A stretch of DNA of 64,000 nt from positions 1,550,001-1,614,000 of the forward strand of contig OZ037837.1 of the NCBI GenBank assembly GCA_964035575.1, read 5' to 3'. Positions within the stretch are counted from its first letter, which is position 1, and the number at the start of each line of letters is the position of its first letter. The stretch is from Rhynchopus sp. YZ270_cl-10. Lineage: Eukaryota. A program made the position numbers and the translations under genes. This document shows, in pieces, positions 1-36,930 of the stretch. Under the pieces are notes generated by a model that did not search any database, was not told where the DNA came from, and saw only the letters and a list, made by a program, of their open reading frames with translations.

Positions 1-353
1 GATTTGAGGAGAACAAGAAGATGAATTAAAAATAAAACGACAACAAAAAATGGAAAATGGAAGGAGCAAACACGGAATTCAAGAAAAGTTTAAAAAAAAC
101 AGACACCCCACATTCTCCCCCAACATCTTCACCTTCCTTATCCGTATCACATATTGTGGGAAAGAGTCCCCAGCCTTTGGCAGCTTCGGTAATGTTGTAT
201 TTTTTGGCTGCACAATCAATACATGGGGATTCCCTCGAATTGGGTTTCCTGAAGGATTTCATTTTATTAATTCTTCTCCTTCTTCCCACAACACAGCAGG
301 GACAACACACCAACCTCTGTGAACAAACACAACACACACTTTCTTTCAGGAAG

Positions 354-3300
354 ATGGGATCCGGAGCGTCGAAGCCTGAAAAGGACGAGATTGCAAAGGG
401 AATTACTGGGAAGGAGAGGCCCGTGGACGCAGTGGACAGCGCGGACGGGAGGACAATGCTGCACAGTGCCGTGCTTGCGGGGGACGTGGAGGCAGTGCGG
501 TTTCTTGTGGAGAACGGGGCAGGGAATGTGCGTGACAGGGACGGGAAGGTGCCGCTGTGGTACGCACTGCAGCACAGAGACGCGGATGTGCGGGGCCGAC
601 TTGAGGCGGAGCTGGGGGCGCATGCAGCAGAGATCCTTGGTGAGGTGGAAGATGCTGTGCAGGTGTACCTCACTGACGGTGTTGTGACAACAACAATAGC
701 AGATGTGGACGTGGAACGGAGCAGTGGAGATGCAACGACAGCACCTCTTGCTCACCCTCACATGGACATGGCGAAAGACACGAACACCTCGACTGGAGAC
801 AGACACCTGGGAGAGGACGATCTTGACGGGGACACGGGTGCACTGTGGCACACAGACGGACGGAAGGTGGAGTGGCTGCGGAAAACAGACGACAGCAACA
901 ACAAGAACAAGAACAGCAATGGAGGTGAAGACCTGCTGTGCTGGCTGCGTGGTCTGCCAAAGGTGGATCCGCCGTTGGGCTACACAGACGAACACGTGCG
1001 GCACATGGAGGCGGGGTTCCGTGTGGTGTGCAAGCGTCTGCTGGAGGACATGAGAGGACGGAGGGAGGCTGCGGGGACACATGGTGGACACGTGGAGGTG
1101 GAGGACTGGATGGCGGCACGCGACCCGTTTGAGCTGCTGCTGTCGGGGTTCCTGTTCACGTCTGACTGCGTGGAGTATGTGCTGGACAGCGGCGGGGATG
1201 TTGTGTGCGACGAAAAGGGCACACCGCAGATTGCGAAAGGGCTTGACGGGAAGCTGCGGTACATCAAACTGACGGAGCGGGCTGTGCTGGACAACCACGG
1301 GAGTGCTGCTGATGTGAAATCACAGTCGCTTGCGCTGTACATGACGATGAACACTGCGATGCGTGCTGTGGGGCAGCTGGCTGCGGTGAAGGAGTGGAAG
1401 GGGACACCTGAGAAGACAGCACCGAACGTGTTTGAGCTGTCGCCCGCACCCCCGCAGCTGCATGTGATTGCGACCTTTGCGCCGCTGATCCGTGGTCTGG
1501 ACCGGCTGATTGGGAGCCGACGGAAGCAGCTGCGGACTGTGTTCCGCGGGATCAATGTGAACGTGTCTGCGAAGTACGCGCTGAATACACACATTGTGTG
1601 GAACTGCTTCACGTCGACAACACTGAAGCGGGATGTGGCTCGGAGCTTCATGTACGGGAAGGGTGGCACGTTCTTTGTGGTGGTGGCGAAGGAGGGTGCT
1701 GCAGACGTGAAGTTCTCGTCTGTGTATGCTTCGGAGGACGAGCTGCTGTACACAGCGAACATTGAGTACCGTGTGCAGTGGAAGCTTTCGCCGACGCTGC
1801 TGCGGATGATGGGGCTGCGCTTTGACGTGATTGTGATGCAGGAGGTGTGTTCTGGTGTGGGTAAGGGTGTGGGGGACACGAGTGCGGCTGAGCAGGTGGG
1901 TGCGCTGCAGGAGGTGATGGGACACACAGTCGCGTTCTTCAAGGACTACCTTGCGCAGTACGTGGAGGGGCGTGTGGGGGACGACACACGTGTGGGTGAG
2001 TCGGAGACACGTCCGCTGATGGAGGAGGTGCGGAGGTGGCTTCGTGCACGTGGAGGTGGAGGTGGAGGTGGGAAGCAGATGTCTTCCGTGTGCACACAGG
2101 CAGCAGCGGGCACACACACAGAGCGCAAGCCTGATGTGGATGCGAGAGAAGAAAGACAAGGGACGTGTGGTGTGCTGTGTGTGATCGGAGAAGGAGGGAG
2201 CGGGAAGACGTCTGCTTCGATTGCAATTCTGAGCGACCTTGCAACGTCTGCGAGGAAGAGCGAAAGCACCAGCAACGAAGACTCAAACAGGAACAGAAAC
2301 AGAAGCAGATACAGTGTTGTGAGTGATGTGACTGCGGATGCGGATGGAGATGCGAAGCCGTACTTCCCTGTGTTTGTGGCGCTACCGACTGTGAAGCAGC
2401 ACCTGCTTGACAAGGGAGGGTTGGACAGGTTTGTGCTGGAGTCGTTTGCGCTGCGGGAGGCGGACCGTGCGTTCCTTGCGGAGACATACGAGGTGGTGCT
2501 GGTGCTGGACTCGCTGGACGAGGTGGGGCTGACGCAGAAGGATGTACGTGCTGTGGTGGCTGAGGGTGGCCTTCTGTGCCGGCACCCGTGGGTGGAGGCA
2601 CACTGCAGCGTTGTTGTGACTGTGCGTGGTGAGTACCTGAAGGGTGTGGACACGTCTCCGTCTGGTGTGTGTGGGGCTGGTGTGCGTGCTCTGTACATGC
2701 AGCCGTTCACAGAGGTGGATGCGAGAACGTACATCAAGCGTGCAAACACAGCCTGGGAGAAGGAACACAAAGAGGGGAAGTCAGCCCACAAGGAGGAGCG
2801 CACAGTCTTCGTGCGTGAGGAGGACGTTGAGGGACTTGTGCAGCTGCGGAACCCGTTTGTGCTGCACATGGCGTGTCACGCGCAGTGCAGCGGGAAGGCT
2901 TCTGAGGAGGTGATCTACGAGACCTACCTGAAGACGTGGACGAAGAAGGAGATGGCGTCTGGGGGAGTTGCTGTTTCTGTTGCTGTTTCGGATGTGTCTT
3001 TGGAGGATGTGGTGCGTGCAGGGGAGCTTGTTGCATGCAGGATGCTGGAGACAAACGAGTGGCAGGGGACTGTGGGTGTGGCGTCGGAGGTTCTTGATTC
3101 GCAGCACGGTGTGTGTGAGGCTGTGCGGGGTGCGTGCTTCCGCTGCCTGCCGTTCCGGATTGAGGACTTTGGGGAGGAGCGGAGTGCGTTCACGTTCCGG
3201 CACAAGTCGCTTGGGGAGCACCTTGCAGCACGGCGGCTTGCACGTGATGCAGCAGGGACACTGGGGACGCTGGTGCAGCGGAGCTTCAGCAAGGACTCGC

Positions 3301-5579
3301 AGCGTGTGCTTGGGTTCTTTGCGGCGCTGGTGTGTGGAGACAGTGGTCTGTACGAACGTGCCTGCACAGAGCTGCTTGCGGCTGTGAAGGCGACACGCGG
3401 CAGTGCAAGTGTTGGTGGGGAGGGTGCTGTGACAGCAGGGTCGAATGCAGCAGCACTGCTGGCACGTGCACGCATCCCTGTGAGTGGAGAGGACCTGAGC
3501 GGGATCCGTGTGTCGAACTGCGACCTGCGCGGGTCTCTGTTTGTGGAGACTGCGCTGACGGGTGCTTCCTTCTCGAACTGCTGGCTGGAGCACACCGAGT
3601 TCCACACCTGCGACATGGGTGGCACGATGCTGCCCGACTGCTCCCTTGGCACACCACTTCCTGTACTGCAGCATCTTGCGCATGATGTAACAGTGACACC
3701 TGATGGTCAAATGCTAACAGCTGGGCATGACGGCGGTGTACATGTGTGGAGCATGTCTTCTGGGGAAGAAGTGATGGTCTTGGAAGGCCATTCGCACTCG
3801 ATCAATGGAGTGGCAGTAACACCTGACGGAACCCGCGTGGTTTCGTGCTCCAATGACGAAACTGTGCGTGTGTGGGATATGCACACTGGGGAGGCAGTGT
3901 TCGTCTTGGAAGGCCACAAAGCTAGGGTGGACGAGGTGGCCGTCACTCCCGACAGTTCTAAAGTTGTTTCAACTTCTCCTGGAGACGGTGTCCGTGTGTG
4001 GGATCTCTCGACGGGGATGGAAGTGCTGGCAATACAGTCGCCTGGCATTCGCAGCATGGTCATTACTAAGGATGGAAGTCAAATAGTGACATGCTCCAAG
4101 GAGGTGTTGTGCGTATGGGATCTGGCCACGGGCAACCAAGAGATGCAGTGGCCGTGCTGTGTGAAGTATTCGCATGTGTTCGCTTCGCATGCACTGGCAG
4201 TCACTCCCGATGGATGCCATGTTGTTTCGTGCTCTGATAATGGCGCACTTCTTTGGAACCTCTCCACTGGGGCAGAGGTGATGGTGTTCCATGCCGACGC
4301 TAAGTTGCTTACAGTGGCAGTCACTCCCGATGGATGTCACGTGGTTGCTGGCTCCGAGAGCGGAAATGTGCACGTTTGGAGCATTTCGACTGGGAAGGAG
4401 GTGACGGTGTTGCAAGGGCATGCTCGTAAGGTGATTGCACTGACAGTATCACCAGATGGATGCCACGTGGTTTCATGCTCCTACTTCGAACGTACTGTTC
4501 GAGTATGGAATATCACGACCGGGAAGGAGACACCAGGTTTCAATAGAGTCTCAGGCCGGTCTGCAGTTGCCCCTGATGGATCTATCATTACGTACGGTGG
4601 CAAGAGGAGCTCCATCTGGAACGCATCCACCGGCAGGCAGACACAAGTAGTTGAAGCAGGGATACATAAACCTGGTGATGCTGCTGCCGTGGACCCAGAT
4701 GGCTCTCACGTAGTTTTTTTTTCTTGCGACGACGCTGGCGAAAGGAGAGCGTGTGTGTGGGACGTTGCGACGGGGAAAGTGCAGCCTTTGTGCACAGATT
4801 CCAGTGAGTTTGCGGCGTTCTTGAAACAGTGTGGACCACGGCTTTCCTTAGCAGTGTCTCCCGATGCATCTCACGTGGTGACCGGTTCAGAGTCTTCACG
4901 GGATAAATTCACTTGCTGTACGTATGTGTGGAGCATGCCGACTGGGAAGAAGGTGTCAGAATATGCAGGAACTACTTGCTTTTCCCACGGAGTGGTAGTG
5001 ACTCCTGATGGGGTGCATGTGGTTTCGTCCCATGAGGATCACACCGTACACATGTGGAAACTTCACACAGGAGAACAGACAATGGTGTTCAAAGGACATA
5101 CTCAAGATGTCTGCGGCGTTGGCGTCACTCGCGATGGATCTCGTCTTGTTTCATGCTCTGAGGACAACACTGTGCGTGTGTGGGATGTTGCCAGTGGGAA
5201 GGAGGTCTTCACCTTTGTGCGTGCTGGTTACGTGTACGGAGTGGCACTGACACCTGATGAAGCTCACGTGGTGTCGTGCGCGGACAGTGTGAGTGTGTGG
5301 AGCATGAACACTGGTGAGAAAGTGGCGGGGGTCAGGGCACATTGCGATTTGTACAGCCTTGCTGTGAGCCCTGATGGACGCGAAGTGATCTGTGCTTGCG
5401 AGGACAAGACTGTGCGTGTGTGGACCATCTGCACTGGGGAAGACGGCACGATTGATGGGTTGCGGCTGAAGAGAGTGATCGGTGTCCCTCCAACAGTTCC
5501 TCGTGCAGTTGGCTGTCGCAATGCTGATGCTGTGGAACCTGAACTTGCGAGACGGATTCTTTGCGAAGTCGAGGAGTGA
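354..5579 (+). CDS. NLR/NWD-like protein: N-myristoylation motif, ankyrin repeats, ADP-ribosyltransferase domain, NACHT NTPase, pentapeptide repeats, 14 WD40 repeats
   Basis: The ORF is open from 57. The likely start is ATG 354 (MGSGASK), just after a ctttcAG acceptor-like tract. Motifs in order: ankyrin GRTMLHSAVLAGDVEAVRFLVENGA; ART R-S-E motifs TVFRG / FTSTT / SEDELL; Walker A GEGGSGKT; NACHT Walker B VLVLDSLDEV; LRNPFVL; FRHKSLGEHLAA (winged helix); pentapeptide-like SGEDLSGIRVSNCDLRGSLF; 14 (V/A)xxPDG-type WD40 blades. Confidence 0.9.
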   Translation: MGSGASKPEKDEIAKGITGKERPVDAVDSADGRTMLHSAVLAGDVEAVRFLVENGAGNVRDRDGKVPLWYALQHRDADVRGRLEAELGAHAAEILGEVEDAVQVYLTDGVVTTTIADVDVERSSGDATTAPLAHPHMDMAKDTNTSTGDRHLGEDDLDGDTGALWHTDGRKVEWLRKTDDSNNKNKNSNGGEDLLCWLRGLPKVDPPLGYTDEHVRHMEAGFRVVCKRLLEDMRGRREAAGTHGGHVEVEDWMAARDPFELLLSGFLFTSDCVEYVLDSGGDVVCDEKGTPQIAKGLDGKLRYIKLTERAVLDNHGSAADVKSQSLALYMTMNTAMRAVGQLAAVKEWKGTPEKTAPNVFELSPAPPQLHVIATFAPLIRGLDRLIGSRRKQLRTVFRGINVNVSAKYALNTHIVWNCFTSTTLKRDVARSFMYGKGGTFFVVVAKEGAADVKFSSVYASEDELLYTANIEYRVQWKLSPTLLRMMGLRFDVIVMQEVCSGVGKGVGDTSAAEQVGALQEVMGHTVAFFKDYLAQYVEGRVGDDTRVGESETRPLMEEVRRWLRARGGGGGGGKQMSSVCTQAAAGTHTERKPDVDAREERQGTCGVLCVIGEGGSGKTSASIAILSDLATSARKSESTSNEDSNRNRNRSRYSVVSDVTADADGDAKPYFPVFVALPTVKQHLLDKGGLDRFVLESFALREADRAFLAETYEVVLVLDSLDEVGLTQKDVRAVVAEGGLLCRHPWVEAHCSVVVTVRGEYLKGVDTSPSGVCGAGVRALYMQPFTEVDARTYIKRANTAWEKEHKEGKSAHKEERTVFVREEDVEGLVQLRNPFVLHMACHAQCSGKASEEVIYETYLKTWTKKEMASGGVAVSVAVSDVSLEDVVRAGELVACRMLETNEWQGTVGVASEVLDSQHGVCEAVRGACFRCLPFRIEDFGEERSAFTFRHKSLGEHLAARRLARDAAGTLGTLVQRSFSKDSQRVLGFFAALVCGDSGLYERACTELLAAVKATRGSASVGGEGAVTAGSNAAALLARARIPVSGEDLSGIRVSNCDLRGSLFVETALTGASFSNCWLEHTEFHTCDMGGTMLPDCSLGTPLPVLQHLAHDVTVTPDGQMLTAGHDGGVHVWSMSSGEEVMVLEGHSHSINGVAVTPDGTRVVSCSNDETVRVWDMHTGEAVFVLEGHKARVDEVAVTPDSSKVVSTSPGDGVRVWDLSTGMEVLAIQSPGIRSMVITKDGSQIVTCSKEVLCVWDLATGNQEMQWPCCVKYSHVFASHALAVTPDGCHVVSCSDNGALLWNLSTGAEVMVFHADAKLLTVAVTPDGCHVVAGSESGNVHVWSISTGKEVTVLQGHARKVIALTVSPDGCHVVSCSYFERTVRVWNITTGKETPGFNRVSGRSAVAPDGSIITYGGKRSSIWNASTGRQTQVVEAGIHKPGDAAAVDPDGSHVVFFSCDDAGERRACVWDVATGKVQPLCTDSSEFAAFLKQCGPRLSLAVSPDASHVVTGSESSRDKFTCCTYVWSMPTGKKVSEYAGTTCFSHGVVVTPDGVHVVSSHEDHTVHMWKLHTGEQTMVFKGHTQDVCGVGVTRDGSRLVSCSEDNTVRVWDVASGKEVFTFVRAGYVYGVALTPDEAHVVSCADSVSVWSMNTGEKVAGVRAHCDLYSLAVSPDGREVICACEDKTVRVWTICTGEDGTIDGLRLKRVIGVPPTVPRAVGCRNADAVEPELARRILCEVEE

Positions 5580-7413: not shown

Positions 7414-9249
7414 ATGAAGCGTTCCTCCGTGAGTGAGTCCCCCACCACAAAGAAGGCCCGGGTGGACGGCCCTGCACCCTCCCACCTCTCCGAAACACAC
7501 AACATGGTGTCTGACACGCAGCCCACCGCACCACAGATGCCGAGCTGTGAGAACTGTGGCGTGCCTGCACAGCTGCAGTGCGGGATCTGCAAGGAGCTGT
7601 TTTTCTGCGACAAGCCTGCGTGCTTCGAAGTGTTCCACTCATCCATGCGGCCACGTGACCGTGAGGCACATCACGCTTCTGTGGCTCCTTGCGGGACGTC
7701 GTCGAAGTGTGCACAGCACCCAGGACAAGAGCTGTCCCTCGTCTGTGAAGACCCTGCGTGTGGAGACGCGTTGATCTGCATACACTGTGCTTACTTCGAA
7801 CATACGGGACACAAGACAGTTGACATCACGGACTACATGAAACGCCAGCGTGACACCCTCTGCTCACACGTGACAGACCTGACAACACAGCGGACTGCTG
7901 CAGAGGAGAAGTGCCGTGTGCTTGAGGCACTCCCACCCACGGAGGACAGGTACAAAGACCTTCTCCTTCAGACACGCGTCGGGCACCTCGTGATGCGTGA
8001 GGATGTGTCGCGCAGCGAAGTCGTGTGTGAGGAGGAGGTGGCACGGAGCTTCCTCACACAGGCACTCAGTCGTGAAGGGGAGGTGTGTGCGCTGAAGACG
8101 TTTGTTGCGAAGGCAGGACACATGATTGCTGAGTGTGAGGCGGTGTGCCAGCTTGGGGACGACCAGGTGCTGCGTGCGGTCACAGAGTCGCAGGCCGTTG
8201 TGCGGAGCATCAACAGCATGGCAGCGAGTGGAGACCGCCACTGCCTTGTGGGTGCTGCAGACCCACACGCAACGTTTTCCCTGAAGCTGCCTGTTTCGAA
8301 CGTGCACGACGCCCTTGCCCAGATGTCTGCGCTTGTTGTGCCTGTCCTTGTGCAGGGGTTGGATGGAGTGGAACATGAGATTGAGGTGAGTGTGGATGAC
8401 ACGGGCAGGGACTTGTTTCGGAAGGTGGCGTCTGCAGTGGGGTTGCGTGAAGGCTGCTTCGACATGACTTTCAGAGATGAACTGATTGCATCAGGAGAGG
8501 ACGTGGTGCAACTGAGGGGTCACAGGGTTGTTGTAACGCAGGTCAACACAGAGAGGAGGAAGCAGGATGCCATTGCAGCACTTCGTGCGTTGGGTGAGAC
8601 GACACTGACATCACAAAGGTTGGAGCAGGTGAGTGATGAAGGCAGTGATCCGAAGGTGGCTTGCTTGCTCCTGCAGGCACAAGTTGCGACTGCGATTCCG
8701 GATAGCTTCTTCTCGACAGCTGCAGTGACGTGCATTGATCTCAGTCATGCGTCTGCTGTGACTGTGATTGGGGAAGAGTTCCTGTTCGGGTGCGCATCAT
8801 TGACCAATGTTGATCTGAGTGGATTACAATCTGTCACCTCGATTGATATCTCGTTCCTCGGCGAGTGCACTTCATTATCGACTGTTGATCTGAGTGCATT
8901 GCGAGGTGTCACCTCAATTGGGCACTTATTCCTCTACGGGTGCACATCGCTGTCGACAGTAGATCTGAGTGGATTACAAGCCGTCAGGTCGATTGAGGAG
9001 TACTTCCTCTACGGGTGTACTTCGTTGTCGACAGTTGATTTGAGTGGATTGCAAGCCGTCACCTCGATTGGGCAGTGGTTCCTCTCCAACTGCCCTTCAT
9101 TGTCGACAGTTAATCTGAGTGGACTGCAAGCTGTCACCTCGATTGATAAAGACTTCATCTCCGGGTGCAAAGCTTTGAAGACCTTGCACGGAAAGGACAA
9201 ATGCAGCAATACTGTCCTAGGCAGTCTGCCTAAACACTTACGCTGTTGA
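7414..9249 (+). CDS. B-box1/B-box2/coiled-coil - ubiquitin-like - LRR protein, copy 1 (6 LRRs, NLS-like N-terminus)
   Basis: Zinc fingers CENC..C..C...C....C...H and CAQH...C....C....C..C....HTGH, followed by a helical segment, Ubl-like VQGLDGVEHEIEVSVDDTGRDL and 25-aa BspA-like LRRs (STVDLSGLQAVTSIGxxFLxxCxSL). Confidence 0.85.
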   Translation: MKRSSVSESPTTKKARVDGPAPSHLSETHNMVSDTQPTAPQMPSCENCGVPAQLQCGICKELFFCDKPACFEVFHSSMRPRDREAHHASVAPCGTSSKCAQHPGQELSLVCEDPACGDALICIHCAYFEHTGHKTVDITDYMKRQRDTLCSHVTDLTTQRTAAEEKCRVLEALPPTEDRYKDLLLQTRVGHLVMREDVSRSEVVCEEEVARSFLTQALSREGEVCALKTFVAKAGHMIAECEAVCQLGDDQVLRAVTESQAVVRSINSMAASGDRHCLVGAADPHATFSLKLPVSNVHDALAQMSALVVPVLVQGLDGVEHEIEVSVDDTGRDLFRKVASAVGLREGCFDMTFRDELIASGEDVVQLRGHRVVVTQVNTERRKQDAIAALRALGETTLTSQRLEQVSDEGSDPKVACLLLQAQVATAIPDSFFSTAAVTCIDLSHASAVTVIGEEFLFGCASLTNVDLSGLQSVTSIDISFLGECTSLSTVDLSALRGVTSIGHLFLYGCTSLSTVDLSGLQAVRSIEEYFLYGCTSLSTVDLSGLQAVTSIGQWFLSNCPSLSTVNLSGLQAVTSIDKDFISGCKALKTLHGKDKCSNTVLGSLPKHLRC

Positions 9250-9783
9250 CAAGCAAGAACGTGTACAGCATCTTCTCCCTGTGGCAAAATATTCATTAAA
9301 GCTTTTTTACCCCATATTACATGACCACTTTTCTTTTATTCTTTTATCCGCCCATATTAGCGACTCAGGGTTTGTGCTCCTGTATACAGTATAGCCCCTC
9401 CCACACTGCGAAACGGGCAGAGGACCCGAACCGGACCCTACATCGCACAGGATTCATGACCCTGTCTGCAATGATCTCCCGTTCATCTGGCTCATGAGTT
9501 GAAGCGGGCGTAGCGCATATCAGATGAAACCACGATATGGATGTAGGACTGCATGGTTGGGTGTCCACCCCGGTACAGCCGGTCATGTACCAAGGTACAC
9601 TGTCACGAGAGGGCTTTGTATTTCAACTCTACTTTTTATTTTGTACGAGTCCCTCTGGAAATGAAAACTGCGTTACAGTCATGTTGTGTAATAAAGGATA
9701 TTCTTACGCATGTACAAGTCAGTATGTGGGTAGCGTACCAACTAAGCATAAGATGAACGGGGTTGTTATTATTTGACATTTAA

Positions 9784-10482
9784 TACGAGGTGTGTAGTGA
9801 CTCACTTTCAGGAAGGGTTTGAAGTACGGACGAGGATGGATGCAATAATTGAAGGGTTGTGTCGAGGGTACTGGGTTGGGTGGGGAGGGCACAAAAAAAA
9901 AGGGTGAGCAAAAAGAGACAAGAGTGCAGCAGTCTTGGGATATGTGCGTAACGACACCTCCCTTGCGAGCACAGACGTAAAGGTTTGAAAACGGTCAAAG
10001 GGTGAGAACACTGCACGTGAGGCTTAGGTTCACTTGGTTTCATAAAAAAATGTGCTGAACAAAAAAATGGAAAAACGAAATGTGTATGCGTTACCTTTTA
10101 GTACGAGGTGTGTAGTGACTCACTTTCAGGAAGGGTTTGAAGTACGGACGAGGATGGATGCAATAATTGAAGGGTTGTGTCGAGGGTACTGGGTTGGGTG
10201 GGGAGGGCACAAAAAAAAAGGGTGAGCAAAAAGAGACAAGAGTGCAGCAGTCTTGGGATATGTGCGTAACGACACCTCCCTTGCGAGCACAGACGTAAAG
10301 GTTTGAAAACGGTCAAAGGGTGAGAACACTGCACGTGAGGCTTAGGTTCACTTGGTTTCATAAAAAAATGTGCTGAACAAAAAAATGGAAAAACGAAATG
10401 TGTATGCGTTACCTTTTAGTACGAGGTGTGTAGTGACTCACTTTCAGGAAGGGTTTGAAGTACGGACGAGGATGGATGCAAT
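9784..10482. repeat. Tandem repeat, 318-bp unit, about 2.2 copies
   Basis: Identical units start at 9784, 10102 and 10420. The ORF track shows identical spurious ORFs 318 bp apart. Confidence 0.95.
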
Positions 10483-15522: not shown

Positions 15523-17205
15523 ATGGTGTCTGACACGCAGCCCACCGCACCACAGATGCCGAGCTGTGAGAACTGTGGCGTGCCTGCACAGCTGCAGTGC
15601 GGGAACTGCACGGAGTTGTTCTTCTGCGACACACCTGCATGCTTCGAAGTGTTCCACCCAAGGGCGCGTGACCGTGAGGCACATCGCGCTTCTGTGACTG
15701 CGTACGGGACATCGTCGAAGTGTGCACAGCACCCAGGCCAAGAGCTGTCCCTCGTCTGTGAAGACCCTGCGTGTGGAGACGCGTTGATCTGCATACACTG
15801 TGCTTACTTCGGACATACGGGACACAAGACAGTTGACATCACGGACTACATGAAACGCCAGCGCAACACCCTCTGCTCACACGTGGCAGACCTGACAACA
15901 CAGCGGACTGCTGCAGAGGAGAAGTGCCGTGTGCTTGAGGCACTCCCACCCACGGAGGACAGGTACAAAGACCTTCTCCTTCAGACACACGTCGGGCACT
16001 TCGTGATGCGTGAGGATGTGTCGCGCAGCGAAGTCGTGTGTGAGGAGGAGGTGGCACGGAGCTTCCTCACACAGGCACTCAGTCGTGAAGGGGAGGTGTG
16101 TGCGCTGAAGACGTTTGTTGCGAAGGCAGGACACATGATTGCTGAGTGCGAGGCGGTGTGCCAGCTTGGGGACGACCAGGTGCTGCGTGTGGTCACAGAG
16201 TCGCAGGCCGTTGTGCGGAGCATCAACAGCATGGCAGCGAGTGGAGACCGCCACCGCCTTGTGGGTGCTGCAGACCCACACACAACGTTTTCCCTGAAGC
16301 TGCCTGTTTCGAACGTGCACGACGCCCTTGTCCAGATGTCTGCGCTTTTTGTGCCTGTCTTTGTGCAGGGGTTGGATGGAGTGGAACACGAGATTGAGGT
16401 GAGTGTGGATGACACGGGCAGGGACTTGTTTCGGAAGGTGGCGTCTGCAGTGGGGTTGCGTGAAGGCTGCTTCGACATGACTTTCAGAGATGAAGTGATT
16501 GCAGAAGCAGAGGACGTGGTGCAGCTGAGGGGTCACAGGGTTGTTGTAACGCAGACCAAGACACAGAGGACGAAGCAGGATGCTATTGCAGCACTTCATG
16601 CGTTGGGTGATACAACACTTACATCACAAAGGTTGGAGCAGGTGACTGATCAAGGAAGTGATCCGAAGGTAGCTTGCTTGCTCCTGCAGGCAGGGGTTGT
16701 GACTGCGATTCCGAACAACTTCTTCTCGCGTACTGCAGTGACGTGCATTGATCTCAGTCATGCGTCTGCTGTGACTGCGATTGGGGAGGAATTTCTTAGT
16801 AGCTGCACAGCTTTGACCAAGGTTGATCTGAGTGGATTGCAAGCTGTCACCGTGATTGGGGACTCGTTCCTCCTCGGGTGCACATCATTGTCGACAGTTG
16901 ACCTAAGTGGATTTCAAGCTGTCACCTCGATTGGGAATGAGTTCGTCTCCGAGTGCCGCTCTTTGTTGACAGTTGATCTCAGCACATTCCAAAGTGTCAC
17001 TTCGATTGGCAAGTGGTTCCTCTCCGACTGCGATTCATTGTCTACCGTTGACCTGAATGGATTGCGAGCTGTCAACCACATATGCAACGATGATCCCTTT
17101 GACCTTTGCGGTTTCCTGGTTAATTGCCCAGCGTTGAAGACCTTGCATGGAAAGGACAGGTGCAGCAAAGTTGTCCTACGCGAGGTACAGAAATTAGGCC
17201 TTTGA
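15523..17205 (+). CDS. B-box/coiled-coil - Ubl - LRR protein, copy 2 (5 LRRs)
   Basis: Near-identical N-terminal half to 7414..9249 with divergent LRR variable positions. Lacks the MKRSS...KKAR extension. Confidence 0.85.
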   Translation: MVSDTQPTAPQMPSCENCGVPAQLQCGNCTELFFCDTPACFEVFHPRARDREAHRASVTAYGTSSKCAQHPGQELSLVCEDPACGDALICIHCAYFGHTGHKTVDITDYMKRQRNTLCSHVADLTTQRTAAEEKCRVLEALPPTEDRYKDLLLQTHVGHFVMREDVSRSEVVCEEEVARSFLTQALSREGEVCALKTFVAKAGHMIAECEAVCQLGDDQVLRVVTESQAVVRSINSMAASGDRHRLVGAADPHTTFSLKLPVSNVHDALVQMSALFVPVFVQGLDGVEHEIEVSVDDTGRDLFRKVASAVGLREGCFDMTFRDEVIAEAEDVVQLRGHRVVVTQTKTQRTKQDAIAALHALGDTTLTSQRLEQVTDQGSDPKVACLLLQAGVVTAIPNNFFSRTAVTCIDLSHASAVTAIGEEFLSSCTALTKVDLSGLQAVTVIGDSFLLGCTSLSTVDLSGFQAVTSIGNEFVSECRSLLTVDLSTFQSVTSIGKWFLSDCDSLSTVDLNGLRAVNHICNDDPFDLCGFLVNCPALKTLHGKDRCSKVVLREVQKLGL

Positions 17206-18376: not shown

Positions 18377-20065
18377 ATGAAGCGTTCCTCCGTGACTGAG
18401 TCCCCCACCACAAAGAAGGCCCGGGTGGACGGCCCTGCACCCTCCCACCTCTCCGAAACACACAATGTGGGTGCCACGCAGCCCACCGCACCACAGATGC
18501 CGAGCTGTGAGAACTGTGGCGTGCCTGCACAGCTGCAGTGCGGGATCTGCAAGGAGCTGTTCTTCTGCGACACACCTGCGTGCTTCGAAGTGTTCCACTC
18601 ATCCATGCGGCCACGTGACCGTGAGGCACATCGCGCTTCTGTGACTCCGTACGGGACGTCGTCGAAGTGTGCACATCACCCAGGACAAGAGCTGTCACTC
18701 GTCTGTGAAGACCCTGCATGTGGAGACACGTTGATCTGCTTGCGTTGTGCGTACGTCGGACATACGGGACACAAGACAGTTGACATCACGGACTACATGA
18801 AACGCCAGCGTGACACCCTCTGCTCACACGCGACAGACCTGACAGCACAGCGGACTGCTGCAGAGGAGAAGTGCCGTGTGCTTGAGGCACTCCCACCCAC
18901 AGAGGACAGGTACAAAGACCTTCTCCTGCAGACACACGTCGGGCACTTCGTGATGCGTGAGGATGTGTCGCGCAGCGAAGTCGTGTGTGAGGAGGAGGTG
19001 GCACGGAGCTTCCTCACACAGGCACTCAGTCGTGAAGGGGAGGTGTGTGCGCTGAAGACGTTTGTTGCGAAGGCAGGACACATGATTGCTGAGTGCGAGG
19101 CGGTGTGCCAGCTTGGGGACGACCAGGTGCTGCGTGTGGTCACAGAGTCGCAGGCCGTTGTGCGGAGCATCAACAGCATGGCAGCGAGTGGAGACCGCCA
19201 CCGCCTTGTGGGTGCTGCACACCCACACGCAACGTTTTCCCTGAAGCTGCCTGTTTCGAACGTGCACGACGCCCTTGTCCAGATGTCTGCGCTTTTTGTG
19301 CCTGTCCTTGTGCAGGGGTTGGATGGAGCAGAACACGAGATTGAGGTGAGTGTGGATGACACGGGCAGGGACTTGCGTCGGAAGGTGGCGTCTGCAGTGG
19401 GGTTGCGTGAAGGCTGCTTCGACATGACTTTCAGAGATGAAGTGATTGCAGAAGGAGAGGACGTGGTGCAGCTGAGGGGTCACAGGGTTGTTGTAACGCA
19501 GACCAACACAGAGAAGAGGAAGCAAGATGCCATTGCAGCACTTCGTGCGTTGGGTGAGAGAAGACTTACATCAGAAAGGTTTTGGCAGGTGCGTGATCCG
19601 AAGGTGGCTTGCTTGTTCCTGCAGGCACAAGTTGTGACTGCGATTCCAGACAACTTCTTCTCGAGAACTAGAGTGACGTGCATTGATCTCAGTCATGCGT
19701 CTGCTGTGACTGCGATTAGGGGCGAGTTTCTTAGTCACTGCACAGCTTTGACTGATGTTGATCTGAGTGGATTACAATCTGTCACCTGGATTGGGGATTA
19801 TTTTCTCTCCGGGTGCACATCATTGTTGACAGTTGACCTCAGCGCATTCCAAAGTGTCACCACTCTTGGGGATTTTTTCCTCTGCGGGTGCACTTCATTG
19901 TCGACAGTTGATCTGAGTGGATTGCGAGCTGTCACCGAGATATGGATCGAGGATCCCTCGGACCCTTTAGACTTCATGTCCAAGTGCCCAGCGTTGAAGA
20001 CCCTGCATGGAAAGGACAGGTGCAGCAATGTTGTCCTACGCGAGGTACAGAAATTAGGCCTTTGA
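18377..20065 (+). CDS. B-box/coiled-coil - Ubl - LRR protein, copy 3 (4 LRRs, NLS-like N-terminus)
   Basis: Paralog. The 5' end resembles copy 1, while the C-terminus (LREVQKLGL) and 3' flank resemble copy 2. Confidence 0.85.
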   Translation: MKRSSVTESPTTKKARVDGPAPSHLSETHNVGATQPTAPQMPSCENCGVPAQLQCGICKELFFCDTPACFEVFHSSMRPRDREAHRASVTPYGTSSKCAHHPGQELSLVCEDPACGDTLICLRCAYVGHTGHKTVDITDYMKRQRDTLCSHATDLTAQRTAAEEKCRVLEALPPTEDRYKDLLLQTHVGHFVMREDVSRSEVVCEEEVARSFLTQALSREGEVCALKTFVAKAGHMIAECEAVCQLGDDQVLRVVTESQAVVRSINSMAASGDRHRLVGAAHPHATFSLKLPVSNVHDALVQMSALFVPVLVQGLDGAEHEIEVSVDDTGRDLRRKVASAVGLREGCFDMTFRDEVIAEGEDVVQLRGHRVVVTQTNTEKRKQDAIAALRALGERRLTSERFWQVRDPKVACLFLQAQVVTAIPDNFFSRTRVTCIDLSHASAVTAIRGEFLSHCTALTDVDLSGLQSVTWIGDYFLSGCTSLLTVDLSAFQSVTTLGDFFLCGCTSLSTVDLSGLRAVTEIWIEDPSDPLDFMSKCPALKTLHGKDRCSNVVLREVQKLGL

Positions 20066-21139: not shown

Positions 21140-22162
21140 ATGTTGCAACCCTTCCTTCTCGCCTTCATAGGCACGACCGCTGCATACAATGTGACGCTGT
21201 ACGACATGAGCAGCGAGCCCGTCATCAGCATCGCCAACACCAAGGGCAACGGCTACTCCCCCTGCACCTATACATTCAATCCTTCCTACGTCGCTGCCGC
21301 CGAAGGTGTCGAGGAGGGTGTGCTGCTCCGCACCGCCAAATGCCCTGACGCTTGGGGAGGCGAAACCGACCACATCATGTGGGCACCGTGCGACCGCCTC
21401 ACAGGAAAATGCAAGGATCTTATCAACGACATTGTCGTGCCTGAGGCCAGCCAAGACCCACGCATCGTTTATGACAACAAAACGAAGACCTACTATAATT
21501 TCTATTGGGCGAACAACGTGAACACAACGGGACACAGCACTGTGGAGTATGCGGTCAACACTGCGGGGCGGCCCTACGACAAAGACGCATGGGTGGTCAA
21601 GAAAACACTGCCGTGGATTAGGAATGGGTGTACCATCCTGAGGGACACACCACCACATTATGTAGTGTACGGCGAGGCTCCTGCTCTGTCTGGCGTCGGT
21701 CTTGCCACCACCTATGACATGGAAACGTTCACCACTATCAACGAAACTCTCTTCGTCGTCGATGAATCGCAAGGCGAAGTGGTAATCGAAGCAGGGTCAC
21801 CTCCAATCCGATTGGCATCTGGGGACTACTTTCATTTGTATGCTGCAGGTACAACAGGTTGGGTGGCAAATGGAAACTACACCAGTGGGTACGTCATTCT
21901 GGATGGAGCAGATCCCAACGTCATTGTCCAAAAGTCGACCGAACATCTGCTCATCTCGCAGTACCCATACCAGAACGGTCTGGACCCAACCTCGCCGTAC
22001 CCTGTGCAGCGCAAGAGAACGCTGTTTGCGTGCACAGCAACGCTTCTCCCGCAAGGCTGGGGGCCGGATAGTGCGGAATACGTGAGGGTGTGGTTCGGTG
22101 CGGCCGATGCTTCTGTGGGTACAGCAGTCATCCGGATCGAGCAAAAAACGGGGAAATTTTGA
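21140..22162 (+). CDS. Secreted five-bladed beta-propeller glycoside hydrolase/phosphorylase, GH130-like
   Basis: Signal peptide plus motifs FNPS, QDPRIV, EAGSPPI and WFGAADASVGTA, typical of the GH130/GH43-62-32-68 clan. Confidence 0.75.
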   Translation: MLQPFLLAFIGTTAAYNVTLYDMSSEPVISIANTKGNGYSPCTYTFNPSYVAAAEGVEEGVLLRTAKCPDAWGGETDHIMWAPCDRLTGKCKDLINDIVVPEASQDPRIVYDNKTKTYYNFYWANNVNTTGHSTVEYAVNTAGRPYDKDAWVVKKTLPWIRNGCTILRDTPPHYVVYGEAPALSGVGLATTYDMETFTTINETLFVVDESQGEVVIEAGSPPIRLASGDYFHLYAAGTTGWVANGNYTSGYVILDGADPNVIVQKSTEHLLISQYPYQNGLDPTSPYPVQRKRTLFACTATLLPQGWGPDSAEYVRVWFGAADASVGTAVIRIEQKTGKF

Positions 22163-24056: not shown

Positions 24057-25139
24057 ATGGAAATATGTGTGGAGAGCTTTGACGGAGAGAAGTACACAGT
24101 CGAGGTGGGTGTGGATGATACAACTGCGGACATACGGCGGAAGGTGGCGTCTGCAGCAGAGTTGTGCGAAGACGGCTTTGACATAAGCTTTGGCGGGAAG
24201 GTGATGGCCGAAGGAGACGACACGACGCAGCTGAGTGCTGGGGACACGATTGTTCTGACGAAGACGCTGTCGCAGAAGGACGACGCCATTGCAGCTCTTC
24301 GTGACTTGGGTGAGACCAACCTGACGACAGAACGGTTCGAAGGTCTGGAAGATCCCAAGCTGATTCATTTGTTTCTACAGGCAGAAGTTGTTACTGAGAT
24401 ACCGAACACATTCTTGCAAGGGAGTACGTTTGAAGAACTTGATCTCAGTGGTGTGTCGGGTGTCACTGCAATAGGCGCCAACGTCCTCTCCCACTGCAGG
24501 TCACTGCACACAGCTGATTTATCTGGGTGGAACAATGTGACGCACATCTCCCACTACGTCCTCGAGGGCGGTGAAATGACTGCCTTAACCAGTGTTGACT
24601 TGTCGGGGTGGAGCAATGTGACGCACATAGGGTACTGCTTCCTGCAAAAGTGCGTCAAATTGAGGAAACTTGACTTCTCTGGGTGGAACAATGTGACGCA
24701 TATTAAGGACTACTTCTTGTCTGGCTGCACCGCGGTATCCACACTTGACTTGTCTGAGTGGAGGAATGTGATACAGATCGACAGGTACTTCCTGAGTTAC
24801 TGCAGCGCATTGACCACACTAGACTTATCTGGGTGGAGGAATGTGACGCATATTGATAAGTGCTTCATGCGGGCCTGCACCGCGTTGACCACAGTTGACT
24901 TATCTGGGTGGGGCAGGCTGACGCAGATAGAGGAAGGCTTCCTCTCAGGATGCATTGCATTGAGAAGGCTTGACGTGTCTGGGTGGAGGAGTGTGACGAT
25001 GATCGGGCCAGGCTTCCTCGAAGGATGCAACATGCATCCAAGAAGCATCAACATCACCGGATCGAGCAGTGTTGTGTCAGACTGTGTGCATGGACGTAAC
25101 ATCATGGACAATACCAAGTGTCAATGTGTGTGCACGTGA
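24057..25139 (+). CDS. Ubl - LRR - CaaX protein, copy 1 (8 LRRs)
   Basis: N-terminal Ubl MEICVESFDGEKYTVEVGVDDTTADIRRKV; 25-aa LRRs TTLDLSGWRNVTHIxxxFLxxCxAL; C-terminus KCQCVCT. Confidence 0.88.
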   Translation: MEICVESFDGEKYTVEVGVDDTTADIRRKVASAAELCEDGFDISFGGKVMAEGDDTTQLSAGDTIVLTKTLSQKDDAIAALRDLGETNLTTERFEGLEDPKLIHLFLQAEVVTEIPNTFLQGSTFEELDLSGVSGVTAIGANVLSHCRSLHTADLSGWNNVTHISHYVLEGGEMTALTSVDLSGWSNVTHIGYCFLQKCVKLRKLDFSGWNNVTHIKDYFLSGCTAVSTLDLSEWRNVIQIDRYFLSYCSALTTLDLSGWRNVTHIDKCFMRACTALTTVDLSGWGRLTQIEEGFLSGCIALRRLDVSGWRSVTMIGPGFLEGCNMHPRSINITGSSSVVSDCVHGRNIMDNTKCQCVCT

Positions 25140-25652
25140 GGACGTGCATCTTTCGAGAGGCTCGCTACTCGTTAGCCTGTTCAAACAACCACTTTTTGAT
25201 TTTGCAGTACGTTCCAAAAGGAAGCGCACCATTTTCTGCATGTTTTTTTTTTTTTGATGTAGTTGTTTCCCAGTGACTTAAAGGGGGGTGGGGGATAAAA
25301 CAATTATCCCCCGTTTTTTCTCCCCCATTTTATTTTATTTTTAGTAAACACGTAGTATTTGACAAAATGCTCGAGACCCTCGTGAAAAGTCGCGCGTTCG
25401 GCGTATCCACCTCCCCGCTTGCTTTCCCCCTCTGTGGAAGCGAACAACAAACAACCAAAATTTTTCCTCTTCCCGTTTTTATCCTTTGAGCAACAAGCAA
25501 AGAGTAACGAGTCTCTCGAGCATTTTATCCCCCACTACAGTTATCCCCCACTTCCCACACCGCGTTTTTGGTGTGGATTTTCCTTGGGGATGGGGATATT
25601 CAGATGGGAAAAAAGAGAGATTTTTTTTTTTATCCCCCACTACAACTATCCC

Positions 25653-26446
25653 CAGGGGTCCTAAGAGTGGTAACTTTTACCACTTCTGAGGTGACCTTTT
25701 TTATTTTTTTTGAAATCCGAAGGTCACTTCGAAGTGACCTTCGAAAAGTGCCCTAAAAAGTGACCTTCCCTTTTTATTTTTGAAATCCGGTGTCACGAAG
25801 TGACCTCGGATGCTTAACATACACCGGGAACACGTTGGAGGGTACGGTATTTTTTTTCTTTTTTGCCAAGATCAGTGGTCTGCAGTGCTGCAGGTTGCCA
25901 CAATGTACAATTTTCAGCGCAATTTTTTTTGGCAAAGTTGCGTACCGTGGCTTCGCCAGAAACTTTCGTTTTGGCAAAATACGTAAGTAAAATTTGCGGA
26001 AACTGACGATAATTACCAACGACAGTGCCATTTTATGGCAAATTTTTTAGAAATGTTGCGTACCGTGGCTTCGCCAGGAACTTTTGGGTGACATGACCGC
26101 CGTTTCTTTTATAAATGTACTCATGTTACTGATAAGAAGGCTGACACCCACTCAACATCGGCCAAAACATCTGCCTATGGCTGTGTTGTGTTGTTCGTGG
26201 TAGCATAATGGTGGCACCAGACTGCGAGACCGCGAAATTGCCTCAAAAAAAATCGTCTCTAGTGCCCTGTCCCTATTATACGGCGATAACCAACGTCCAG
26301 TGTATGTCCGAGGAATTTGCACCTTTTCAACTTCACTTTTGTTGTTCCTCTGAGGGGGAAAGGTTTTTTTTTTCCTCCCCAAAAAACGAGAAGTGACCTT
26401 GAAGTTACCATTTTTATTTTTTTTGAGAACAGCGTTAGGACCCCTG
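25653..26446. mobile_element. Non-autonomous hAT-type element nested in the previous element
   Basis: Perfect 12-bp TIR CAGGGGTCCTAA/TTAGGACCCCTG, 8-bp TSD ACTATCCC (25645-25652 and 26447-26454), and subterminal AAGTGACCT repeats. Confidence 0.9.
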
Positions 26447-26489
26447 ACTATCCCCCATTTTTTGAGAAGAAACAACTGGCGATATTTTT

Positions 26490-27110
26490 TATTTTATCCC
26501 CGCTTGAGACCATGAATTTCACGCCCCTTCACAAAATCGTGAAGGAGGTGCGTGAATTTATTTTCCGGTATTTCACGCTCAAAAAATAAATTCACGCTCA
26601 GAAAAATAAATTCACGCTCAGAAAAATAAATTCACGCTCAGAAAATCGTAGAACTGAACTCTCGAAAATTTTTTTGGAGGCCTTTGGAGGCCCAATTTTG
26701 CAATTAAAGCCAGAAAAGAGGCATTTTGAGCCATTCTAGGGGTCTCAAACGCATTTTTCAGTTAATTTTCTGTAGCACACAAACCAAGGATACACACCGT
26801 TTTTTTTTCCCAATATTCTTCCAAAATCCCAAATGACACCTCAAAAACGTACGAGGGCACCTGTGGAGAGTGAGTCCGACACGAACACAAGTGACTCATC
26901 GTCATCGTCTTCCTCATCTTCATCAGAAGTACAGCCGCTTAAGCGCCACAAACCCGCTGCACCAGTTCTGGCTCAAGGCGCTGTCCAGCGCTAAGAGTTC
27001 CACATAAAAAAACTGAATCAAAAATCATCATAAAAATAACCATCCCACCCTCTTCTCTTTGTACGTGAAAACGGGTTGTGAAATTCATGGTCTCATTTGG
27101 AGATAAAATA
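26490..27110. mobile_element. Inverted-repeat element with internal 20-bp tandem repeat
   Basis: TGAGACCATGAATTTCAC near 26505 is mirrored by GTGAAATTCATGGTCTCA near 27078. (AAAAATAAATTCACGCTCAG)x3 lies at about 26582-26641. Confidence 0.6.
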
Positions 27111-27118
27111 ATATATTT

Positions 27119-27263
27119 TCGTGAATTTATACCAGTATTTCACTTACAGGTGGAAACAGCCCTCGGGGAAGCATTTTTCCCCTCGGGCTTCGCCCTCGGG
27201 AAAAAATGCTTCCCCTCGGGCTGTTTCCACCTGTGCGTGAAATACTGGAAAATAAATTCACGA
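27119..27263 (-). repeat. Long hairpin with GCGAAGC loop and CGAG/CGAG internal motifs (minus strand)
   Basis: Arms cgtgaatttat..ccagtatttcac..acaggtggaaacagccc..gggaagcattttt are mirrored on the right. The centre is gcttcgc at 27187-27193. Confidence 0.9.
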
Positions 27264-27876
27264 TAATAATATATATTATCCGCCATTCTACAGTTATCCC
27301 CCACTACAATTATCCCTCCCCCCCTTTATCATTGACAGCGCAAACGTCACAACAGCAGGTCTTATGTTTTGTTAAGGTACACTATCACGAGAGTGCTTTG
27401 TATTTGTGTTTGTATTTCACGTCAAGTTTGTTTTGCAGTAACTTCTGTAGTAACGATGTGTGGAAGAGATGCCCATTCATCTACCACGTGTTTTTGTTTC
27501 ACTTTTGTGTGTTGTGAGAGAAATGTAAAAGGTTGTTGGAACCTGTTGTCATGATAAAAGCCATGACGCCATTGAGCGACTCATAGGCGCGTCAGTATCG
27601 GTTGTTTGCGCTTCATATCGCAGAGGATAGAGAAACTGAAACGTCATTAAAAATTACAAAACTGATGAGCACTGATCAGAGCAGCCACTCTGCCTCGGTT
27701 CAAATCGGGCACATGTCTGCACATCTCTTCAGTGAACTGAACACTGGAGAACTATTTTTACAAACAAACCACACACCCCAGCCTTTCTTCTTTGCACCTT
27801 GCCAATCCCCTTCTCCTTGTGTCACTACGCTTTCTTGCCACACCAAAACACTTGCACAGAACAGAGACACAAAACC

Positions 27877-28878
27877 ATGGAAATATGTGTGGAGAGCTTT
27901 GACGGAGAGAAGTACACAGTCGAGGTGGGTGTGGATGATACAACTGCGGACATACGGCGGAAGGTGGCGTCTGCAGCAGAGTTGTGCGAAGACGGATTTG
28001 ACATAAGCTTTGGCGGGAAGGTGATGGCAGAAGGAGACGACACGATGCAGCTGAGTGCTGGGGACACGATTGTTCTGACGAAGACGCTGTCGCAGAAGGA
28101 CGACGCCATTGCAGCTCTTCGTGACGTGGGTGAGACCAACCTGACGACAGAGAGGTTCAAAGGTCTCAAAGATCCCAAGCTGATTCATTTGTTTCTGCGG
28201 GCAGAAGTTGTTACTGAGATACCGAACACATTCTTGCAAGGGAGTACGTTTGAAGAACTTGATCTCAGTGGTGTGTCAGGTGTCACTGCAATAGGCGCCA
28301 ACTTCCTCTGCGAATGCAGGTCATTGCACACAGCTGATTTATCTGGGTGGAGCAATGTGACGCACATCGACAGTAGCTTTCTCGAGGCCTGCAGCACATT
28401 GAAGGCACTTCACTTGACTGGGTGGAGCAATGTCACGCAGGTTGGATCCTCGTTCCTCGGCTGCTGCAGCACATTGACGACGGTTGACTTGTCTAGATGG
28501 AGCAATGTGACGCACATCGACAGGTACTTCCTCGAGGGCTGCAGCGCGTTGACCACACTTGACTTATCTGGGTGGAGGAATGTGACGCATATTGAGTACG
28601 GCTTCTTGTCGGACTGCACCGCGTTGACCACAGTTGACTTATCTGGGTGGGACAGGCTGAAGCGGATTAAGCATGGCTTCCTCTCAGGATGCATTGCATT
28701 GAGAAGGCTTGACTTGTCTGGGTGGAGGAGTGTGACGGAGATCGGGACAGGCTTCCTCGAAGGATGCAGCATACATCCAAGAAGCATCAACATCACCGGA
28801 TCGAGCTGTGTTGTGTCAGACTGTGTGCATGGACGTAACATCATGGACAATACCAAGTGTCACTGTGTGTGCACGTGA
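27877..28878 (+). CDS. Ubl - LRR - CaaX protein, copy 2 (7 LRRs)
   Basis: Paralog of 24057..25139. ATG in the aaaaccATGgaa context; ends KCHCVCT. Confidence 0.88.
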   Translation: MEICVESFDGEKYTVEVGVDDTTADIRRKVASAAELCEDGFDISFGGKVMAEGDDTMQLSAGDTIVLTKTLSQKDDAIAALRDVGETNLTTERFKGLKDPKLIHLFLRAEVVTEIPNTFLQGSTFEELDLSGVSGVTAIGANFLCECRSLHTADLSGWSNVTHIDSSFLEACSTLKALHLTGWSNVTQVGSSFLGCCSTLTTVDLSRWSNVTHIDRYFLEGCSALTTLDLSGWRNVTHIEYGFLSDCTALTTVDLSGWDRLKRIKHGFLSGCIALRRLDLSGWRSVTEIGTGFLEGCSIHPRSINITGSSCVVSDCVHGRNIMDNTKCHCVCT

Positions 28879-29462
28879 GGACGGGCATCTTTCGAGAGGC
28901 TCGCTACTCGTTAGCCTGTTCAAACAACCACTTTTTGATTTTGCAGTACTTTCCAAAAGGAAGTGCACGATTTTCTGCATGATTTTTTTTGGACTTACTT
29001 GTTTTTCTGGTGACTTATCATTGACAGCGCAAACGTCACAACAGCAGGCCTTATGTTTTGTTAAGGTAGGCCAGCACACGCTAGACAACCCAGTGCACTT
29101 GTTGTGCTCCCGAATTCGCCCGAACTGTATTTCGGTGGGTCCAAGTATGTCCCACGAAGCACGAGAGCGAGACGCGGAAAATAATTTATTTTTTCTTTTG
29201 TTTTCTTTCCATTATTTGCCATATCCCGAAGTCAGATTCTATATTCATTTCTCTCTTTTGCTTTCCTTGAGAAGAGCCCTTTGCGTCCCCTCTCTCTGCT
29301 ATCTCTGCTATGTGTCTTTTTCTTCGCAAATTGAGAACTATTTTTTCGAACAAACCACACACCCCAGCCTTTCTTCTTTGCACCTTGCCAATCCCCTTCT
29401 CCTTGTGTCACTACGCTTTCTTGCCACACCAAAACACTTGCACAGAACAGAGACACAAAACC

Positions 29463-31240: not shown

Positions 31241-31947
31241 AGACGTGCATCTTTCGAGAGACTCGCTACTCGTTAGCCTGTTCAAACAACCACTTTTGGA
31301 TTTTGCAGTACGTTCCAAAAGGAAGTGCACGATTTTCTGTATGTTTTTTTTTGATGTAGTTGTTTCCCAGTGACTTATCGTTGACAGCGCAAAAGTCACA
31401 ACAGCAGGCGTTATGTTTTGTTAAGGTACACTGTCACGAGAGTGCTTTGTATTTGTGTTTGTATTTCACGTCAAATTTGTTTTGCAGTAACTTCTGTAGT
31501 AACGATGTGTAGAAGAGATGCCCATTCATCTATCATTTTGTGTGTTTTCAGATTGTTGTGTTGTGAGAGAAATGTAAAAGGTTGTTGGAACCTGTAGCAT
31601 GATAAAAGCCATGACGCCATTGAGCGACTCATAGGCGCGTCAGTATCGGTCTGCGAATCACATTGAAAACGGCGTTGTTTGCGCTTCATATCGCAGAGGA
31701 TAGAGAAACTGAAAATTCATGAAAAATTACAAAACTGATGAGCACTGATCAGAGCAGCCACTCTGCCTCGGTTCAAATCGGGAAAATGTCTGCACATCTC
31801 TTCAGTGAACTTAACACTGGAGAACTATTTTTACAAACAAACCACACACCCCAGCCTTTCTTCTTTGCACCTTGCCAATCCCCTTCTCCTTGTGTCACTA
31901 CGCTTTCTTGCCACCAAAACACTTGCACAGAACAGAGACACAAAATC

Positions 31948-36670: not shown

Positions 36671-36930
36671 AGTATGCCTGGGCCAAATTACTTCCAAAAC
36701 ACAACAAGACCACGACAAGGAGAGTGAATTGTGCACTGGTTTTCTGGGGAACAAACAATATTTTCTTGTACCTCAAGCAGAGGACAGACTGTTCGGAAGC
36801 TTTCCAACGGTTGAATTTCTTTGCGATGCTATATGCTCCCTGGGTTAAATGATAATAGCAGTAACTGACTTCTGCGAAAAAGCCGGTCTGCGAAACCCAA
36901 TTTTCATTTTTTTTATTTATGTTTATTTAT

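Follow-up and report, generated by a model that had tools for sequence, protein, structure and literature searches.

The gene at positions 354-5579 of the window, the whole stretch of 64,000 nucleotides of Rhynchopus sp. YZ270_cl-10 DNA that was analysed, encodes within one chain an effector, an NBD and a repeat sensor, in that order. We think it fairly probable that it belongs to a family of NLR-like receptors of non-self that share a single output, a likely arginine-specific ADP-ribosyltransferase (ART). Judged from its sequences, this is likely a so-far undescribed family of immune receptors of single-celled eukaryotes. An earlier note on this DNA had taken the ART for the NACHT-linked effector of an NLR-like protein; the Pfam match, the modelled ARTC fold, the R-S-EXE motif and the order of the domains bear this out. 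A description of ART-effector NLRs or of diplonemid NACHT proteins was not found by full-text searches of the literature, a point on which subscription papers may bear. The ART-NACHT fusion is likewise not described in the available parts of PMC8195603, PMC7159879, PMC12881547, PMC10789625 and the TeTIR preprint (10.64898/2026.09.21.753143). In a general list of apoptotic effector domains, a passage of PMC8195603 does include ART.

The open-frame scan shows a single stop-free frame, intact and intronless-looking, of 1741 amino acids (354..5579, forward strand, as are all the features of the gene given below). A short pyrimidine tract followed by AG (339..349) sits directly before the ATG at 354 and is a likely trans-splice acceptor. 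Trans-splicing occurs in Euglenozoa. A second in-frame ATG, at 57, would lengthen the protein by 99 residues; the acceptor, if used, would likely exclude it. We take 354 as the start because the tract and its AG lie immediately 5′ of it, because the MG motif is residue 1 in 43 of 76 family proteins and lies within the first 140 residues in 69 of them, and because the N-terminal extensions of longer relatives mostly show no relation to one another. The opening residues, MGSGASK (354..374), fit the N-myristoylation consensus MGxxxS (Gly2, Ser6), as had been noticed for MGSGAS, and the motif is kept in the family; in some relatives Cys3 follows the MG start. Myristoylation of the product depends on 354 being the true start, since the ATG at 57 exists. 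The motif stands at the start in 3 of 52 distant ART-NACHT proteins among the matches listed, and by this distribution the myristoyl start is a trait of the subfamily. A second N-terminal type, MGSAVSK..QYDVAK, occurs on otherwise near-identical copies (P0004, P0005, P0008-P0010, P0029 and P0037). Hydropathy revealed no signal peptide or membrane helix in the protein starting at 354 (19-residue maximum 1.25), and the product is predicted to be cytosolic. An ecto-enzyme was considered and rejected, the 354-start protein being devoid of a signal peptide. A bacterial contaminant was also rejected, since the genes around it are eukaryotic, as is every close relative that carries a name.

The chain begins with an ankyrin repeat unit (residues 13-78, 390..587; Pfam Ank_2 E 1.8e-8, Ank_4 E 8.6e-10), which the earlier note had missed, then a low-complexity linker. 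The ART, with its helical N-subdomain, follows at residues ~188-501 (915..1856; Pfam, model and structure alignment). It thus lies N-terminal to NACHT, as had been proposed, but not at the extreme N-terminus, which belongs to the ankyrin unit and the linker; and it stands upstream of NACHT, but not directly so, as some 110 residues separate its end from Walker A. The segment first assigned to it, about 1300-1850, was too small, because the helical subdomain starts near residue 188. The NACHT NTPase and its helical region span residues ~603-1035 (2160..3458). The Pfam NACHT match is weak in this protein, which contains low-complexity insertions (16.7 bits against a cut-off of 26.7, E 0.0065), and it is found in the close relatives P0085 (41.4 bits) and P0070. 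The motifs are in place: Walker A, GEGGSGKT, at 2187, and the Walker B region LVLDSLDE at 2499, with DSLDE at 2508, which corresponds to the NACHT signature D[GAS]hDE given in a passage of 10.1101/2022.07.19.500537. Walker A and D[GAS]hDE are present together in all 78 family sequences. A conserved FRHKS motif lies at residue 948, in the part where the winged-helix domain that follows the NTPase in STAND proteins would be expected. Pentapeptide repeats come next (3459..3653; PF00805, E 3.2e-6, above cut-off), and then 14 WD40 blades, likely making two propellers with four hypervariable positions in each blade (3654..5453; Pfam and blade anchors, 13 anchors by pattern and one added by eye). NACHT, pentapeptide repeats and 14 blades had all been named in the earlier note. 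Language-model features, a lead only, place bacterial NACHT-pentapeptide proteins as the nearest Atlas clusters to the NACHT-pentapeptide part (0.83-0.86). PADLOC returned matches at the level of the repeats only.

The identification of the ART rests on several lines of evidence. The catalytic motifs (1545..1742) fall where they had been read by eye, near 1545, 1610 and 1731: R398 at 1545, FTSTT from 1608 with S421 at 1614 (S421-T-T423), and SEDEL from 1731 with E461 at 1734 and E463 at 1740. The triad R-S-E is therefore R398, S421 and E463, and the EXE motif E461-D-E463. Such motifs alone could be due to chance. We discount this because of the Pfam score (PF01129, 28.9 bits against a cut-off of 22.3, E 9e-7), of conservation, and of the modelled ARTC fold. 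The arginine, the serine and both glutamates are conserved at 90% or more in an alignment of 59 ART sequences spanning 20-94% identity. The model guided by this alignment has a pLDDT of 92 and a pTM of 0.89, in keeping with the ART fold that had been anticipated. In Foldseek its best matches are Vis (E 7.5e-9), HopU1 and ExoS, with E about 1e-8. VIA-align superposes residues 6-319 of the model on ART2.2 (Z 14.5, rmsd 2.9, 192 residues aligned) and the model on HopU1 (Z 14.5, rmsd 4.0, 209 aligned). Twenty chains reach a Z of at least 8 and all are ART-type, while unrelated ones score about 4. We thus predict that the domain has the ARTC fold. Three other results have no bearing on the fold: residues 183-532 folded without an alignment gave a pLDDT of 31, no ART turned up when solved structures were searched with the sequence of the ART region, and a profile search was swamped by WD40 repeats.

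Shared fold and motif do not by themselves establish ART activity. A pseudo-enzyme or decoy was nevertheless rejected, the catalytic motifs being kept. ART domains are said to have been surveyed by Aravind in 2015. According to passages of PMC3102197, R-S-EXE is the mark of arginine-specific ARTs, its first glutamate setting arginine as the acceptor; this agrees with what the earlier note had asserted of ExE, and it makes an arginine-specific enzyme the likely reading of the motif found here. The same receptor logic could also operate if the main activity of the ART were to hydrolyse NAD+ or to generate ADP-ribose rather than to modify a protein, in the manner of the TIR and sirtuin domains that NACHT proteins carry as effectors. 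Such domains, which target NAD+, are established in this role in parts of 10.1101/2022.07.19.500537, a passage of PMC10789625 has ARTC5 perhaps acting mainly as an NAD+ hydrolase, and a small-molecule substrate would fit an invariant ART domain. We regard this as unlikely, if the least so of the rival readings, in view of that first glutamate as determinant of the arginine acceptor and of how constantly EXE occurs: in all 62 close sequences, in 13 of 16 intermediate ones, and in 40 of the 48 distant proteins that could be scored among the matches listed.

Further support for a receptor comes from the close family of this protein. Searching with residues 180-700 gave 76 proteins, one of them the window's own; 59 are close relatives, 77-96% identical, and apparently paralogs. 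The longest-contig value of 1,539,504 bases is common to 27 of them and that of 798,917, the window protein's own, to 5, which suggests that family copies form arrays in one assembly. Within the 64-kb window there is no second copy. With two cluster members added to the window's protein and its 59 relatives, 62 close sequences could be compared, and R-S-T-E-D-E is found in each. The 16 more distant sequences from the same search keep R-S-E in 14 cases; P0066 and P0077 no longer have all residues of the catalytic motifs, and P0073 lacks the first glutamate.

Variability was followed in 54 full-length copies (60, minus 6 that are truncated or start-less). The mean pairwise difference is 0.038 in the ART, 0.066 in the NACHT-pentapeptide part and 0.114 at the N-terminus; it rises to 0.259 and 0.331 in the two halves of the WD40 region. 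In the ART 203 of 315 positions are invariant. Sites above 1.5 bits number none in residues 321-500, and 130 of 600 in WD40. Averaged over the blades, variability peaks at positions -6 (3.07 bits), -4 (2.85), +12 (2.66) and +14 (1.89) from the anchor; position -7 is also variable (2.31 bits). The 56 hypervariable blade sites have a mean of 2.58 bits against 0.44 at 112 control loop sites, where it should be kept in mind that the four positions were chosen and scored on the same protein alignment and that the copies are not independent. As many as 17 residues are met at one blade site, and 53 distinct fingerprints are found among the 54 copies. That a near-invariant ART goes together with a hypervariable propeller face makes the receptor reading stronger. 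The low divergence of the ART could reflect gene conversion in part; in a check for mosaicism, distances between regions correlated at 0.33-0.74. P0029 is a hybrid of the two N-terminal types, a hint of segment exchange.

Could such an expansion be neutral, or an artefact of assembly, with relaxed constraint on the WD40 repeats? The records come from long contigs, and copies may mix assemblies or haplotypes. Yet variation is restricted to fixed blade positions with near-invariant neighbours, catalytic residues are retained even where identity falls to about 20%, two public runs contain variant contigs of the gene by the thousand, and relatives are transcribed. We hold this explanation to be very improbable.

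The pattern of the variable positions has a precedent. In passages of PMC1805685, diversifying selection acts on codons 7, 9, 25 and 27 of the Podospora NWD repeats, which map to the top of the propeller. Their spacing in HET-E, 2/16/2, is that of the variable blade positions here, compared at the protein level. Shuffling of repeats of the HET-E type is not evident, because the blades within the protein are alike at only 26% on average (maximum 57%). Convergence with fungi on the same four blade positions suggests that WD40 sensors follow a general rule.

A constant enzyme with a diverse binding face would equally fit a propeller that selects substrates: the bound foreign or damaged protein would itself be ADP-ribosylated, NACHT acting as a licence switch, and the family would act as an assortment of targeted inactivators. 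In those STAND proteins that have been characterised, the ligand of the repeats is the trigger, not the substrate. The same role of trigger is given to it in the apoptosome passage of PMC7159879, and here the ART and the propeller stand about 600 residues apart. Parts of PMC3102197 describe vertebrate ARTCs as promiscuous, with a specificity that comes from access, which would help this proposal; we nevertheless find it improbable, slightly more so than an NAD+-consuming output.

In the reading we prefer, that of receptors with one ART output, known STAND and NLR proteins suggest the following sequence of events. The receptor would be autoinhibited at rest, and tethered to a membrane through its myristate. 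Binding of a ligand to the variable WD40 propeller would be the trigger; NACHT would then swap its nucleotide and oligomerise. The ARTs, clustered and released within the cell, would modify arginines of a host target near the membrane, and the invariance of the ART points to one such target shared by all copies. The outcome would be growth arrest or death of the infected cell. The variable propellers would cover many triggers, for which proteins from a virus, an intracellular bacterium or ingested prey are candidates.

How far does the family extend? Residues 293-532, searched against representatives at 50% identity, gave 165 matches, of which the best 150 were considered, 139 of them new; an ART query biases such matches towards sequences that keep the motif. 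Profiles built from the family place a NACHT behind the ART in 49 of these 139 among the matches listed. With three isoforms this makes 52 ART-NACHT proteins, 48 of which could be scored among the matches listed: R-S-E is kept in 46, and QXE is found in place of EXE in 6. The output is thus not uniform across the family, given these six and the losses in P0066, P0077 and P0073. Like P0066 and P0077, P0087 and P0178 have lost ART catalytic motif residues and kept NACHT; all four might be sensor-only partners. The gap between ART and NACHT is 56-84 residues in 45 of the 52 among the matches listed. In Pfam, run on 34 selected relatives, WD40 or LRR repeats lie behind and SAM, RCC1 or ankyrin domains in front; a PDZ domain is also present among distant members. 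In P0068-P0076 the ART is the best-kept region (53-65%). The closest named relatives, P0074-P0076, have ART, NACHT, pentapeptide repeats and WD40 in one chain; as they derive from transcript assemblies, the ART-NACHT fusion is expressed in relatives, with ART and NACHT on one mRNA as the earlier note had supposed for the gene of the window. These relatives also make a diplonemid the likely source of the DNA.

That note had also called for the architecture to be sought in eukaryotes, and the ART-NACHT fusion, with varied sensors, is indeed found in named diplonemids and free-living kinetoplastids. Of 30 relatives looked up, 14 have names: 11 belong to Lacrimia, Diplonema, Namystynia, Artemidia, Flectonema and the 'Hpha' set, which we take to be diplonemids (Hpha presumably standing for Hemistasia), two to Papus and Apiculatamorpha, which we take to be free-living kinetoplastids, and one to Pigoraptor. 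Cultures of the latter are fed kinetoplastid prey, so this match may be contamination. In a quick tree of about 125 residues, 68 of the 69 ART-NACHT sequences fall within a single clade of 75 leaves, which is weakly supported (0.71). Two word-limited searches for non-euglenozoan NACHT relatives gave four proteins each, none new by name. Searched at a sensitivity suited to close relatives, neither prokaryotes, taken as one genome per species, nor viral contigs yielded one for the ART. On these sequences, we would give even odds to an NLR immune system of Euglenozoa built once on an ART-NACHT fusion, with a toxin-type arginine-specific ART as executioner, and deployed in Rhynchopus as some 60 membrane-tethered receptors with a hypervariable, HET-E-like face.

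Another use of the same machinery would be to sense cues other than pathogens (prey, symbionts, kin or mates), ADP-ribosylation then being a reversible signal rather than a defence. The SAM, RCC1 and PDZ domains of distant members are modules of signalling type, and diversity of the HET-E type serves fungal allorecognition in passages of PMC1805685. A lineage-specific burst, with about 60 copies and up to 17 residues at a site, would rather be typical of arms races, and we are inclined to doubt this role, a shade more than we doubt substrate selection.

Other genes of the window deserve mention in their own right. Four paralogs combining a zinc finger/B-box, a ubiquitin-like part (FERM_N match) and BspA-type LRRs lie at 7414-9249, 15523-17205, 18377-20065 and 56451-57455 (all +; Pfam was run on one); their N-halves are near-identical and their LRR ends differ, which makes them a second candidate recognition family. 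An array at 24057-40486 (+) contains at least six ORFs with ubiquitin-like and BspA-LRR parts in varying repeat number. They share a C-terminal KC[QHY]CVCT ending, which we take to resemble a prenylation signal. The protein of 1079 residues encoded at 45343-48582 (+) is likely a membrane receptor: it carries a solute-binding domain of bacterial type (SBP_bac_1, E 2e-14) and hydrophobic segments, and its C-terminus, judged by eye, resembles a cyclase. Two identical minus-strand frames of 87 codons, 318 bases apart, mark a tandem duplication at 9780-10361. A GH130-like protein (21140-22162, +), recognised by a weak match below the cut-off, and an acyl-CoA thioesterase (43146-44198, +) are also present.

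Should the preferred reading, receptors with an ART output, hold true, protein ADP-ribosylation would join the TIR, sirtuin, pore-forming and protease outputs of NLRs, and free-living single-celled eukaryotes would be seen directly to have a diversified immune repertoire. It would be a case of cell-autonomous innate immunity in a unicellular eukaryote. Diplonema papillatum is genetically tractable. The idea is therefore testable, since this organism has a member of the family, P0083, annotated as a WD repeat protein only. The enzyme would also be an endogenous intracellular arginine ART, of a kind that the 2010 review, in the parts available (PMC3102197), could not name: no vertebrate intracellular arginine-specific ARTC had been characterised, and such enzymes seemed to be lacking in unicellular eukaryotes.

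Four known systems come close to this protein. The arginine-specific ARTCs (rat ART2.2, HopU1, ExoS, Vis, VIP2; passages of PMC3102197) share its fold (Z 11-14.5) and R-S-EXE, but they are ectoenzymes, secreted toxins or phage enzymes, whereas the ART described here is fused to a STAND protein and has no signal peptide. TIR-domain NLRs, including TeTIR-STAND in parts of 10.64898/2026.09.21.753143, also use an NAD+-consuming enzyme as STAND effector; theirs is a TIR NADase, ours a different enzyme fold with a transferase motif. The bacterial bNACHT proteins, NACHT-pentapeptide ones among them (portions of 10.1101/2022.07.19.500537), share D[GAS]hDE, pentapeptide and propeller sensors, and NAD+-using effectors, which are TIR and sirtuin domains there and an ART here; 'ADP-ribos' is absent from the main text of that preprint, and its Table S1 may bear on the matter. 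The fourth system is that of the NWD/HNWD proteins of Podospora anserina (HET-E, HET-D; passages of PMC1805685), with the same order of effector, NACHT and WD40, a family of paralogs, and four variable positions per blade at equal spacing. The effector there is a HET domain, for which Pfam gave no match in the N-terminal pieces of the Rhynchopus protein, and the latter adds pentapeptide repeats, an ankyrin unit and the MGxxxS start; it has about 60 copies, where the Podospora family has 10 members. In HET-E near-identical repeats are exchanged between blades; because the blades of the Rhynchopus protein are so much less alike, homogenisation would take place between paralogs rather than between blades. 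To judge from its sequence, this protein works like an NWD protein, and is not a member of that family.
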